Shown piece by piece: positions 20,180-33,293 of a stretch of 64,000 nucleotides of DNA (position 1 is its first letter; the number at the start of each line of letters is the position of its first letter). A program made the position numbers and the translations under genes. The DNA is taken from the IMG/VR virus record IMGVR_UViG_3300037245_001320, positions 1 to 64,000 of that record; one strand, given 5' to 3'. The stretch comes from a virus. The notes under the pieces are model-generated. The model saw nothing but the letters and a program-made list of their open reading frames with translations, ran no database searches and was not told the DNA's origin.

Positions 20180-20269
20180 TTAGGTTGGACTAATTCGGAT
20201 AGGATAGACTAATAAACTTAGGCTTGCCTATCTGAATTAGGGTGGACTAACAAAGTTAGGCTTGCCTAT
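20180..20269. repeat. 5 x 14-bp imperfect palindrome WTAGG-N4-(A/C)CTAW with exact 19-bp period
   Basis: Units at 20180 TTAGGTTGGACTAA, 20199, 20218 TTAGGCTTGCCTAT, 20237, 20256. Confidence 0.92.
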
Positions 20270-21038
20270 CTGGATTTATATTTATACAATAATCATGAAT
20301 AAATATACTTATATAATAGTTATCATTATCTTTAATAGTAGTATTGATTATCATTATCAATAACTTTTATTAGTAATAGTTACTATTCATATTGTTTAAA
20401 ATGAGATATTGTTTGTAAGTTTCTTATTTATTTCTAATATAGTAACATCCTCCTTTTAATATACTTATATAATACCATTTAAGCATAACGAAAATAAACC
20501 GCTAAACTTATCATAGTTACACCTTTTTAAAAATCCGAAGTTAAAAAGAAAACTACCATAAATTCTTACTACCTTTTTAAAAATGGTTTTTAAAATCACT
20601 AACTAGATTTTTGTTTTTGCAACATTTAACTATTCAGCTATTTTTTTATAGCGAATTTAAAAAATTGAAAGTTGAATTTATTACCTTGAAAAATTTACAA
20701 AGTTGAATTCATTGTCTCGATTTTTTTGAAAAGATCTCTGTTATAACTTTGAAAATTTTGGTAGTAATCACTACTACCTTTTAACTAACTAAGATTTTTT
20801 AAATAGTTTCTTGATATAACTTTTAAAATTTTGGAATTTTATTGTGCTTTATTAGATACAACTAACAAAATTAGGCACAATGAAAGTAGCAGTTAGTCTT
20901 ATCTAACTCGTATATTTACTATAGAATTTCATCTAAAATGATAGTATAAACGGTCTGTAACAGGTTTCAATGAATATAGCATAGACTTTATAAACCCACC
21001 CACGCTATGAGCGATTTTAAACAAATTCTGTTTTCAAG

Positions 21039-21071
21039 TATTATTATTATTATTATTATTATTATTATTAT
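21039..21071. repeat. (TAT)11 microsatellite
   Basis: Direct reading. Confidence 0.95.
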
Positions 21072-21232
21072 TTCTAATTTGTTATTTTACTTGCATATAA
21101 AGGAAGAGGAAAATTCTTTTAATCTTTTTACTTATTTTAATTGACTCTTTTTAATATCTAAGCTATATTTATTAACAGATAGCAACTAACAAACTGTTAT
21201 TAGATACAGGTTATTTAATTATATGGTTTTAA

Positions 21233-21733
21233 GTGCTGAAAAGATTAAAAGGATTTTATAATATGGATAGTAAAAGATTAAAAGGCATTATTATTTTACT
21301 AGGTGATACAAGCCACCATGAAGAGCAAGGAAACTATTTTTTAAAAAAGACAAATACAACTTTTGTTGCTACTTATTCACATGTAACAAATACATTTATT
21401 AAGGGGTTAGTAAATACAGTTTATGAAATAACACTTAAAAACGAAAATGGTGTATATCAATTTGATTTTACACAATCGGTGCATAATTCAAAACTTGATA
21501 TTAAACCAACACCTTATGATGTTTTATCAGGTGTTACATGTTACGAAGTTGAAAAGGAATTAAAAGACTTTTGTAGTGAGTTCGGTTATGAACACAAATT
21601 CTATAATGAAGACTTAAATAGATATTGCTTAGTTAAAGAGTCACAAAGCATACACAATGCCTGTAAAAAAGAATATAGAAATATAAAAAGAATGTTTAAA
21701 AATACTCTTGATATATTATGTGAAATAAACTAA
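21233..21733 (+). CDS. Hypothetical phage protein
   Basis: ORF with PTPYDVL..DFCSEFGY motif; true start probably M11. Confidence 0.65.
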   Translation: MLKRLKGFYNMDSKRLKGIIILLGDTSHHEEQGNYFLKKTNTTFVATYSHVTNTFIKGLVNTVYEITLKNENGVYQFDFTQSVHNSKLDIKPTPYDVLSGVTCYEVEKELKDFCSEFGYEHKFYNEDLNRYCLVKESQSIHNACKKEYRNIKRMFKNTLDILCEIN

Positions 21734-21769
21734 AGTAAATTAGTCCAGAGGGATAAAGGATACAAAAAC

Positions 21770-29350: not shown

Positions 29351-29617
29351 TTAAATATCTTTAAATGTTAATTTATTTTTATCTATATAAGTAATATATA
29401 AAACGTTGTTACTTAGATAAACTATTTTAGTATCAAAACCTAATTCATAACCTTTTAAATTAATATCTATTCTTTTTACATAATTAACAATATTTGATAA
29501 TAATAAATTATCAATATCCTTTTCAGAATGAATACAACACAAATATTCATAATGTAAACTATCACAATATACTTTTGTATCAATAGTGTATAAATCAATT
29601 AAATCAATCACTTTCAT
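29351..29617 (-). CDS. Hypothetical protein (minus strand)
   Basis: 88-aa ORF coupled to 29614..29901; no competing + ORF. Confidence 0.65.
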   Translation of the reverse strand: MKVIDLIDLYTIDTKVYCDSLHYEYLCCIHSEKDIDNLLLSNIVNYVKRIDINLKGYELGFDTKIVYLSNNVLYITYIDKNKLTFKDI

Positions 29618-29901
29618 CCCAATACCTCTATTATATCAATAGCAGTATCTTTAATAGTCCATTGTTTAAAATCATTTACCCCATATTCATACACAATATT
29701 AGTAGTAAGATCAATTTTAAAGTTTAATCCTATATGGTTTGTATCAGTAATATACAAATAAGTAGTTTGGTGTAATTCAGAATAAACAACATTTTCCAAA
29801 CATTCTATAAGTACAGCATTCTTACAAGTGACTTTTAATGTAACAAAGTGGTCAAACTCATTCACTTTTAATAAGTGTAATAAATCATTAGTATTCAACA
29901 T
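29614..29901 (-). CDS. Hypothetical protein (minus strand)
   Basis: AAAGGA RBS and a divergent promoter at about 29935-29965. Confidence 0.65.
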   Translation of the reverse strand: MLNTNDLLHLLKVNEFDHFVTLKVTCKNAVLIECLENVVYSELHQTTYLYITDTNHIGLNFKIDLTTNIVYEYGVNDFKQWTIKDTAIDIIEVLG

Positions 29902-30023
29902 ATATAATTCCTTTTAATAATTAAGATAATTTAAATATAATCCATAAGAGAATAAAAAGCAAGCATAAAAAGACACTTGACATAAAAAGAATAAAGAATA
30001 TAATAATTAAAAGAGGTTAAGAA

Positions 30024-32349
30024 ATGAAAACAATTAAAACAAGTTACAAAACATCTGAGCTATTAAGCAATAGATTAAAAGACTATCACACTAAAGATTT
30101 AAAAAGAGATCAATACAACATTAAAAACAATAACTATTATTTTAACAAACATATAAAAAGTTTATTATGTCGGGTTAGAAGAAAGAAAACTATTTACTTA
30201 ACTAAAAGTCAATATATGCTATTATCTTATATGATAGATGAAATAATAGACTGTAATAAATTACAATTATCAAGTATTAGCTTAAGAAAAGAATTATTAC
30301 ACACTAATGGAGATAAACAAAGTACGTTAGTGAATAAACAAATAGTATTATTAAGGAATATACTAAAAACAGTTGATTAAATAGAATTAGTGTGTATAAT
30401 GAATAGTATAAAAGAGTAAAGGAATAAATAATGAATAAAAAAATGAAACAAATACTAATAGATAAAATGGAGTTAATTGACAATCCTATAGTACAGTTTA
30501 AAAATAATGAAACATACATAGAATACTATAACGATTCTAACGAAATAGTAGACGATTATACTGTAAATATAGTTAATTCTATTATCCCAAAAAAGACTAT
30601 AGAAGAAAAGAAACAAGCAATAGCAACTTATATATTAAATAATGGGTTAGAGTCTCTACAGGATGCAACTATAAATGATATCTATGAAGAAATAAAAATT
30701 GAATCCTATATTGACGATATAGAAAAGAAAGTAACTGAAGAGGAAAAAAGAACAATTGCTTTACAAAAATATCAATCATATAAAGGTAAATACTACAAAG
30801 TTTCAACAAGTGACTATATATTTATGTATCATGTAAAAGATGTCGATGTAAAAGATTATTATGGGACTTATGAAGGCACATTTTCAAGTCAAATAATAAC
30901 AATACATAAAAATAATCAAATAAGTATTAAAGAAGATACAGCAACAGATTTTATTAATTTAGAAGAATTAAAGAAAAAAGCAATAGCAGAACACAAAAAG
31001 AGTATAGCACCAAACAAAACACAAAAGCTATTTATTGATATGGGATTCGTATTTAGTAGTAGAACTAATGCAAAGTGTAAAGAGCTATCACTAGAATTAA
31101 AATATGAGCAACAAGGGGATTTTACTCTTTTAATAGGCTTAACCACAAAAGGACGTTTCAACATCCAACACCCTAAAGAAAAATTACAAATGGAAATAGA
31201 TAGATTATTTATTAAGCATTTTAAAAAAGAGTTAGAAAGATGAAAATACTAAATAAGATGATAATACCAAAAATTAAAAGATATGGACTAATTAAAGGTA
31301 TTCATGAACACACTAGGGATAAAATGAGTATTGCAATATGTATAGAAGATTGTGACAGATTTTACCAATACGCTAATAATTACGAACCATGGAGAGAATT
31401 AGACAGGGATGAATTAAAACTATTAATAAAAGAATGGTTTGATTATAGGAAGTTTAAAAAGACTCTTCAGTATAAAATACTACTCTGGTTATTACAATTT
31501 GATAAAGTCAAGGAATGGCATATTTAAAAATAATATAAAAGCAGGTAAAAGAATTTAATTACAGAATTAAATAAACAATATAAGAGAGACCTTGAAATAG
31601 TCTCTTTTTTATTTGTCTAAATAGTAATGTGATCAATCATATATGAGTATACAAGCGATATAATGCAATCGTTAACAATATACACCACTTTACTATAATA
31701 ACCTTTATATAGTAATAAAGGATAATAGTTAATATAGTAGTAACAATATACAATAATAACAAATAAGCTTATAGAATCCATACATATATAAAATCAATGC
31801 TATATAACATAATAGGTTTAATAACAGTTTGTTGATACTGTAAAGAATGAAATTGATATAATAATATATAGCTTAGTTATGACTAACTGTAATTTGAGGT
31901 GAGACTATTAAAGATAGGTTAGACTAATAAACTTATATGTAAGGAATATATAGTAATAAATTAAAAATAATACTTGCATAATTAAAAATAGTCTATATAA
32001 TAGTAATTAGATCAAAGATTAAAAGGGTGAACAAATGAAACAAGTAAATGTAAAAGACTTAACAAGACTGGAAACAATATTATTAAATGAAATAGTAACA
32101 AGTAACATGGATCAAGAATTTGTTTGTCATATTATAGATAGTTCTGAAATAGATAATAAATCAATAAAAGGTGTTATTTCTTCATTAGTTAAAAAAGGTA
32201 TAGTAACTATACAGGATTACGAAGGTAAAGGTCTATCAATTGATAATATATTATACTTAAATGATAATAGTAAAGATATTCAGATAGTATTAAATAATTT
32301 TAATAAAACACCTAAATTATTTAATATATACTTAAAAGGTTTAAAATAA
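30024..32349 (+). other. Hypothetical genes 30024, 30431, 31240, 32035 (32035 is winged-helix-like)
   Basis: RBS and promoters; 32035 has SIKGVISSLVKKGIV, an HTH-like pattern. Confidence 0.6.
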
Positions 32350-33186
32350 TATTGAGTAAGAGAGACTATTAAAACAGTCTCTTTTTATTTGTTCCAATAG
32401 AATACAAACATATAGTAAACAATATATAGTGATAACCTTATGCAATGCTATAATAACTTACTATCCTAATAACTAACCTCTTATTATACTATCTATGATA
32501 TGAGCATAGTGGTGCATACAAGCGATGTAATACAATAGATATACAATCATACCACTTTAATATATAAACCTTCTACGGTGATATATGAAGGATACTATAA
32601 GAGACTATATGTAAGAAACCATATATAGTAGGGTGTTTATACTGGACTTATTGGAATAGTTGATAAGATGTATAACTATTGTATAAAGATCGTTGTATAG
32701 TCTTGTATGGAGAAATTAAGGGGATTGTAGATAGTATGTAAGATAGTTCTTATGTATAGTTAAGTCGTTGCTTAATTGTTTAGGTGTTGCATTGATATCA
32801 TACGTATTAGGCAAGGCTAACTGTAATTATATATTACATATCATTTGATAACAATAAATAGTAAGTGGCGAAATATACCACGCCTTGGTAATTCTTACCA
32901 TTATTGATATAAACATATGTATAACTATTTCAATTCTGCTATATAGTCAAAAAAGATGTCATTGTTCCCAGACTTAAATTTTCTTTTTTATTTCTCTTAG
33001 GATTCGACGATTAAGCAACTACTTAACTATCGAACTATCCCACTCGACGCAACGTCAACGCCAAATGAGAGAAAAAAGGAACAACTTTCATAAATGGAGT
33101 CAAAAGAGGGTCAAATTCACGTTATTTAGTAGCACTTTCTATGAGAGTTGACCATATAAGCATAAATATGCATCAAAACGACCGAA

Positions 33187-33293
33187 TTAGGCACACCTAA
33201 CTAAATTAGGCAAGGGTAAGTTTGATAGGCAAGCCTAACAACATTAGGGAGGGTGGCCGGTTAGTCCGACCTAACAAACTTAGTCTGTATATC
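33187..33293. repeat. Array of 14-bp palindromes with 19-bp period, inverted relative to 20180-20269
   Basis: 33187 TTAGGCACACCTAA, 33206, 33225 ATAGGCAAGCCTAA (reverse complement of 20218/20256), 33244 degenerate, 33261 TTAGTCCGACCTAA (near reverse complement of 20180), 33280 degenerate. Confidence 0.88.

Follow-up and report, generated by a model that had tools for sequence, protein, structure and literature searches.

Two arrays of short palindromes stand at the borders of an AT-rich block of small genes in the genome of an uncultured phage, record IMGVR_UViG_3300037245_001320 of the IMG/VR database. The stretch analyzed, which we call the window, covers the first 64 kb of one viral contig of 154,018 bp with a GC content of 32.7%, and the block with its arrays occupies about 20 to 33 kb of it. 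We read the arrays, tentatively and with a confidence that falls a little short of even, as cooperative operators of the DtxR/IdeR/MntR type that probably serve a metal sensor of the host and that would gate or insulate the block between them. Because their sequence and spacing resemble the cooperative arrays of the DtxR family, they are more likely to be regulatory sites than markers of genome ends. We infer both the identity of the binding protein and the effect of its binding.

Architecture of the arrays

The unit of the arrays is a 14-bp imperfect palindrome, TTAGG-N4-CCTAA, followed by a spacer of 5 bp. An earlier note, made from the letters of the window, had described five units on the left and six on the right, and both descriptions are correct. 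The unit-bearing elements are as follows, with no strand assigned to any of them.

20180..20274: left array, five units at an exact 19-bp period, from the sequence, Tandem Repeats Finder (TRF) and a unit matrix
31873..31927: third mini-array, with units at 31873, 31895 and 31914, a direct copy of left-array units
32807..32820: isolated strong unit in the right non-coding gap, fitting 9 of 10 specified bases and scoring 17.9 bits, outside the set used for the matrix
33187..33298: right array, four good and two degenerate units, from the sequence and the unit matrix

The left units start at 20180, 20199, 20218, 20237 and 20256, and each fits 8 or 9 of the 10 specified bases. TRF reports a period of 19 and a stronger period of 38, with 87% matches, because two variants of the unit alternate. 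On the right, the starts at 33187, 33206, 33225 and 33244 keep the 19-bp step and are followed by 33261 and 33280; the good units are 33187, 33206, 33225 and 33261, the degenerate ones are 33244 and 33280, and the step from 33244 to 33261 is 17 bp. Over both arrays, 9 of the 11 units fit 8 to 10 of the specified bases, and unit 33187 fits all 10.

As the note had remarked, the 15-mer at 33224 has its exact reverse complement at 20218 and again at 20256, but the mirror-image orientation that it proposed for the arrays does not hold up, with an array-level identity of 57% in direct and 55% in inverted alignment. Single units with their spacers align best when inverted (16/19), and the mini-array is a direct, not an inverted, copy of left units (18/19 between 31914 and 20199). 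Since the units are palindromic, direct and inverted alignments score alike and orientation is nearly meaningless. The symmetry proposed to extend outward from the arrays also dissolves: the left-hand word belongs to a terminator, as the T-tail of its hairpin at 20025-20040, the right-hand word is the upstream A-tract of the promoter at 33507-33535 that serves a KilA-N gene, and similarity between the outer flanks, with a score of 22, is not above that of shuffles (21.4 ± 2.8).

The clustering of units in this genome is real and non-random. A matrix built from the array units and applied with a cut-off of 12 bits finds 13 sites in the 154-kb genome, versus 3.9 ± 2.0 in shuffled genomes, and 12 of the 13 fall in the two border regions, every one of them in non-coding DNA. 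Nine of those 12 are units from which the matrix was constructed; the border sites independent of it are 31873, 31914 and 32807. The setting of the arrays is also as the note described it. The gaps around them, 19759-21232 and 32350-33589, each exceed 1 kb and contain no open reading frame (ORF) of at least 60 aa, the longest being 45 aa on the left and 53 aa on the right, and GC is 0.22-0.26 across 20-33 kb as against 0.30-0.37 outside, a drop from about 0.32 to about 0.24.

Resemblance to metal-repressor operators

The array unit TTAGG-N4-CCTAA equals the 14-bp site TTAGGNNNNCCTAA that is recognized by one IdeR dimer, the redefined single-dimer site of IdeR and DtxR, two overlapping copies of which make up the classic 19-bp DtxR box (PMC8464063). 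The spacing has its counterpart in Bacillus subtilis MntR, where four dimers bind cooperatively to four 18-bp sites lying 1 bp apart, hence at a 19-bp period, and where site 1 at mneP covers the -35 element (bioRxiv 10.1101/2024.06.28.601288). Steps of 19 bp, the spacing for such contacts between dimers, run through the left array and the first four units of the right one. Control of prophage genes by a host DtxR is documented, in prophages CGP3 and CGP4 of Corynebacterium glutamicum (10.1101/2025.01.02.631128).

A search with PF01325 finds no DtxR-family protein in the phage, so the most likely binder would be an iron- or manganese-sensing repressor of the host. There is likewise no DtxR-family gene in five other array-bearing viral records, two of which are 91% and 99% complete. 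Judged by the unit, the period and the archaeal parallels described below, the earlier suggestion that the arrays are bound cooperatively by a dimeric protein is well supported.

Like arrays in other genomes

Public collections were searched for any three core units that follow one another at 19-bp steps, which yielded 6 viral, 114 metagenomic and 37 genomic stretches, many of them plain tandem or coding repeats, together with a clear subset having TTAGG-N4-CCTAA units. Clustering the stretches by their neighboring genes gives one strong signal, feoA(-feoA)-feoB. In 13 cellular archaeal loci, including named Methanobacterium and Helarchaeota assemblies, these genes are preceded, at a distance of 26-216 nt, by an array of 3-7 TTAGG-N4-CCTAA sites with a 19-bp period, in every case in non-coding DNA (for example L040 6370-6476, L153 around 7300, L163 around 4826 and L171 around 6175, and also in L043, L139 and L167). 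In L043, L139, L167 and L106 the array stands between the feo operon and a gene with the PF01325 and PF02742 domains of the DtxR family; the first three share one sequence, which with L106 makes two independent sequences. In the Helarchaeota and in L106 the array occupies a divergent gap adjoining the DtxR-family gene. Since feoAB arrays stand beside DtxR-family genes in these four loci, the same architecture in nature is that of a metal-repressor operator. We know of no description of the archaeal feoAB arrays, for which no literature search was made.

TTAGG-type arrays also occur in unrelated viral contigs (L022, L023, L021/L024/L042, L178, L186, L198 and L203), where they lie in non-coding gaps at periods of 18, 19 or 20 bp. 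Positions are 4008-4059 in L178, 8174-8225 in L186, 3471-3522 in L198, around 7758 in L203, 7511-7560 in L023 and 42-148 in L022, and two of the viral arrays are within about 2 kb of a terminase gene. No protein family was found that the array-bearing phages, or the neighbors of their arrays, have in common. Arrays at the ends of contigs L021, L024, L022 and L035 were considered as genome ends and rejected as assembly breaks; L042 reads through an array of more than 10 units, and L035 ends in perfect tandem copies.

Several observations weigh against the assignment to a host metal repressor. No metal-related gene lies near the phage arrays, whereas in the archaea feoAB adjoins the array at all 13 loci. 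The viral arrays with 18- and 20-bp periods, together with raw three-unit counts that are not higher at 19 bp, mean that a period of 19 bp is not diagnostic on its own, and with these period controls the argument rests on the type of unit and its contexts rather than on counts. The cellular precedents are archaeal, while the promoters and terminators of the phage are of bacterial type. Homologues of the phage CheD protein do not exceed 46% identity and are spread over a mixture of taxa, giving neither a host nor a cognate regulator. A close relative represented by contig L007, which covers the KilA-N side, has no recognizable array in the 550 bp present. Finally, the phage has a winged-helix gene of its own among the right-hand arrays, a layout kept in the related contig L012, although L012, as a close relative, does not provide independent evidence of the association.

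How the arrays would act

The elements that matter for a regulatory role at the two borders are these.

20025..20046, plus strand: intrinsic terminator closing the upstream operon, hairpin 20025-20040 with a T-run
20262..20290, plus strand: promoter-like site directed into the block, 9/12 matches with a 17-nt spacer, -35 at 20262-20267 inside the last left unit and -10 at 20285-20290; predicted activity
33507..33535, plus strand: phage-specific promoter of the extended -10 type, belonging to the KilA-N gene (33590-34315) and repeated in the genome

We propose that each 14-bp unit takes one winged-helix dimer and that the 19-bp period would let neighboring dimers touch, so that five or six dimers could load together in a steep, metal-dependent manner. 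The left array lies directly behind the terminator of the upstream operon and would cover the -35 of the inward-directed promoter-like site, while the right-hand arrays lie between the last gene of the block and the first phage-type promoter. Loaded arrays might thus gate entry transcription and stop read-through at both borders, tying expression of the block to the metal state of the host, and the roughly 15 sites on each genome copy could soak up host repressor during replication. A role in looping or silencing, which the note had listed, is possible.

If this is right, the phage would read the iron or manganese state of the cell before committing to takeover, and the sites on its multiplying genomes could, like a sponge, draw the repressor away from the metal-uptake genes of the host. 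Host metal repressors have so far been known on phage DNA at single operators, in corynephage tox and the C. glutamicum prophages, so that an array-based and highly cooperative fencing of a whole early block would be a new form of phage metal sensing or manipulation. We are rather doubtful about the broadest version of this idea, in which many unrelated phages carry operator arrays for host DtxR-family repressors and the roughly 15 sites found here fence a first-expressed block while sensing metal state. The case also cautions against taking palindrome arrays at module borders for genome termini, and a by-product of the scan is that Methanobacterium and Helarchaeota have operator arrays with a 19-bp period ahead of feoAB.

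Alternative explanations

The protein that binds the arrays might instead be encoded by the phage, and the candidate is the last gene of the block.

32035..32349, plus strand: 104-aa winged-helix protein, from an AlphaFold2 (AF2) model and a family search

This gene has its own promoter-like site at 31974-32001 and a terminator at 32358-32385, and the mini-array stands 45 nt upstream of the -35 of its promoter. The AF2 model, made with an alignment of 40 sequences, is a confident winged helix followed by 2 C-terminal helices (predicted local distance difference test (pLDDT) 90), and its fold matches, all tied at Z = 9.3-10.6, are MarR, PadR, TubR, ArsR and F-93. The family has 220 members, is mostly phage-borne and has no Pfam model; its recognition helix and wing motif are conserved. 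A search of the family sequences against the Protein Data Bank (PDB) found nothing, and profile comparison with a DtxR-family protein was not significant. The supposition would be that this last product of the block loads both ends as well as the mini-array at its own promoter, regulating itself and shutting off or insulating the block, for which one possible means is to bridge both ends into a 13-kb loop. The placement of the gene between the mini-array and the sites at 32807 and 33187-33298 speaks for this, as do the likeness of its model to the small dimeric proteins MarR, PadR, TubR and F-93 and the layout of L012. That 2.2-kb contig has a homologue 65% identical, followed in order by the same terminator as here, an AT-rich gap with four copies of the unit (two of them 19 bp apart), a sharp rise in GC and a short conserved box. 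Against this, a search of five other viral records with arrays turned up none of the family, no family member was found near any TTAGG-type array, and other members occur in unrelated contexts without such arrays. The motif, moreover, is exactly that of another, well-studied protein family, with which (profile against DtxR) this one has no significant relationship. We consider binding by the 104-aa protein unlikely, though it is the main rival to a host repressor. A homologue in a different setting is that of L015, a 57-kb temperate-looking phage, where the gene adjoins an integrase and four separate arrays of 11-bp repeats surround a MerR-like gene at 11357-12548.

Explanations in which the arrays mark DNA boundaries were raised by the note. 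The more substantial one takes the 13 kb for a long direct terminal repeat that the assembly has collapsed, of the kind known from T5, SPO1 or K-like phages; the arrays would then mark its borders as terminase-cut or DNA-entry-pause sites. The block does look like an early block, being AT-rich, with small genes, promoters of its own and large, repeat-rich non-coding borders. One terL exon shares 40-48% identity with those of a group to which fHy-Eco03 belongs (43% with fHy-Eco03 itself), and fHy-Eco03 has experimentally supported terminal repeats of 3699 bp with 11 small genes and the same layout of plus-strand and then minus-strand genes. K-like terminal repeats are bracketed on both sides by 12-bp inverted repeats (PMC6022877), and within the T5 repeat there are non-coding repeats in inverted orientation on which boxes for the host DnaA protein occur in pairs (10.1101/866236). 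Yet the contig has no overlap at its ends, the repeat border of fHy-Eco03 has no such array, the arrays at the ends of other viral contigs are assembly breaks, extra copies of the unit lie well inside the 13 kb (31873-31927 and 32807), and PhageTerm assigned cos ends to a further phage of that terL group; the group also includes records that simply start at terL. We hold a collapsed terminal repeat to be improbable. By analogy with what has been proposed for the DnaA boxes of T5, a terminal repeat and an array for a host protein would not be mutually exclusive. Circular closure of the contig was also considered and set aside, there being no end overlap and an uninformative ORF at the junction.

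More improbable again, in our estimation, are replication origins of the lambda type, with iterons of about 19-bp palindromes beside a melting AT-rich stretch and a winged-helix initiator, either as paired origins or as a handcuffing pair after SPP1 oriL/oriR, P4 ori/crr and P1 incC/incA. The left array does consist of five palindromic repeats followed directly by about 180 bp of about 17% GC, the winged-helix gene has repeats on both sides, and its protein has weak DnaD_N and ORC-like matches. These matches are below threshold, though; the whole block is AT-rich, so that a melting stretch is nothing special, and the right array has no AT-rich neighbor of that kind. The replication genes are 70-130 kb away on the other strand, and an origin, though it accounts for the left array and the AT-rich DNA beside it, would leave the identity of the motif with metal-repressor sites unexplained. 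A centromere of the TubR, ParR or ParB type was rejected in the same connection: searches of the genome at E ≤ 1 gave no tubulin-family (TubZ) or ParB_N match, ParA and ParM not being among the families searched, and TubR is one of many tied fold matches. The least probable of all, with hardly any standing in our view, is the note's invertible or excisable segment, or a transposed one, with multiple binding sites for a recombinase or transposase at its ends, on which the recombinase-like gene at 8349 or a degenerate copy of it at 34318 would act. The composition of the block is unlike that of its flanks, recombinase-like genes are present, and the gene at the right border differs between L012 and the window. 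But the anatomy of the unit is wrong for it. A tyrosine recombinase uses a matched pair of core sites, each with two 11-13-bp arms around a 6-8-bp spacer, and 5-4-5 palindromes repeated five to six times are neither core nor arm sites. No longer matched pair was found at the borders of the block; inside it neither a transposase nor a complete integrase is encoded; target-site duplications are absent and the flanks are unrelated; and one orientation only has been seen.

Comparison with known systems

For operators of a metal repressor, the nearest model of architecture is the pair of MntR arrays at mneP and mneS of B. subtilis, which share with the phage arrays head-to-tail dimer sites at a 19-bp period. 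The individual MntR sites are weak and imperfect and are bound cooperatively through contacts between dimers, and the sites here are likewise imperfect; as in the left array of the phage, the promoter-proximal site lies over the -35. Unlike the MntR arrays, the phage has half-sites of the IdeR/DtxR type, five or six sites rather than four, and arrays at both ends of a 13-kb block instead of before a metal exporter, and binding is a prediction. The classic example of a host metal repressor acting on a site carried by a phage is corynephage tox, and in the IdeR/DtxR site and the tox operator the recognition word TTAGGNNNNCCTAA is identical to the phage unit. In the known tox and DtxR cases, from high-GC Actinobacteria, a single promoter has a single 19-bp double-dimer operator, in contrast to about 15 sites in arrays in a phage of 33% GC, with no toxin or metal gene involved. 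The feoAB arrays of Methanobacterium and Helarchaeota have the same unit and 19-bp period and are non-coding like those of the phage, but they are cellular and archaeal, stand directly before iron-uptake genes, and have a regulator gene adjoining in four loci.

Two further systems resemble the phage in layout. The first-step-transfer region of T5 has clusters of sites for a host DNA-binding protein, set in inverted non-coding repeats that are kilobases apart and located inside its first-expressed block of small genes or at the edge of it; its DnaA boxes, unlike the arrays here, are inside a proven terminal repeat, and their role in stopping injection is itself a hypothesis. At lambda OL and OR, palindromic dimer sites likewise form arrays that flank a block holding the gene of the binder, with cooperative binding and the possibility of long-range looping. 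In lambda there are three sites per side, 2.4 kb apart, over outward-facing early promoters of a temperate phage, while the block of the present phage measures 13 kb and an overlap with a promoter-like site, in this case an inward-facing one, is confined to the left array.

Genome setting and further features

The phage is large and apparently virulent. IMG/VR lists its record as linear and lacking end repeats, CheckV estimates it to be 90% complete, and its genes occupy the plus strand as far as about 97 kb and the minus strand from there on. A megablast of 19-34.5 kb against 50,697 phage records gave no match, and an Rfam search of the region found nothing. Relatives of the portal protein are below 33% identity in cultured phages and reach 59% on one 12-kb viral contig. 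Among the flanking proteins searched against IMG/VR, KilA-N has one distant match and CheD none. The remaining features of the region are as follows.

20275..21232, no strand: left non-coding leader, very AT-rich, from ORF, repeat and unit scans
21233..32349, plus strand: AT-rich block of about 30 small genes, nearly all without assigned function and with hardly any family matches
33289..33311, plus strand: short box right of the right array, where GC rises, conserved in the related contigs L007 and L012

The left leader contains two 40-nt direct repeats (20722-20761 and 20795-20834), weak copies of the unit at 20852 and 20893, and a (TAT)11 microsatellite at 21039-21072. It also has, at 20521-20590, another family of AT palindromes, which are spaced at about 50 nt.

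The composition and gene content of the block, which has its own consensus promoters and terminators, fit an early or accessory block. Its second gene (21770-22306) matches the antirestriction protein ArdA, but weakly and below threshold (E = 0.059); if true, this would suit a block that is expressed first. Only two of its genes are on the minus strand, at 29351-29901, and they sit between convergent terminators at 29139-29164 (plus) and 29345-29320 (minus).

Counterparts of the short box at the right border are found at about 255-280 in L007 and at 1254-1278 in L012, a G-rich word about 40 nt upstream of it is conserved as well, and in L012 a consensus promoter reads into the box, which may mark the start of a small RNA. 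The KilA-N promoter beyond it recurs at least five times in the genome, at 49971, 65578, 66922 and 150360 (minus strand), and with one change at 53519 and other places.

A 68-nt repeat family with a near-consensus promoter has copies at 22300-22367, 31638-31705 and 32505-32572, the third of which is directed into the 1-kb ORF-free stretch ahead of the right array. One terminator hairpin with the same tail is likewise present in three copies, at 29138-29178, 31580-31620 and 32357-32397, each of them at the end of one of the transcription units toward the right of the block.

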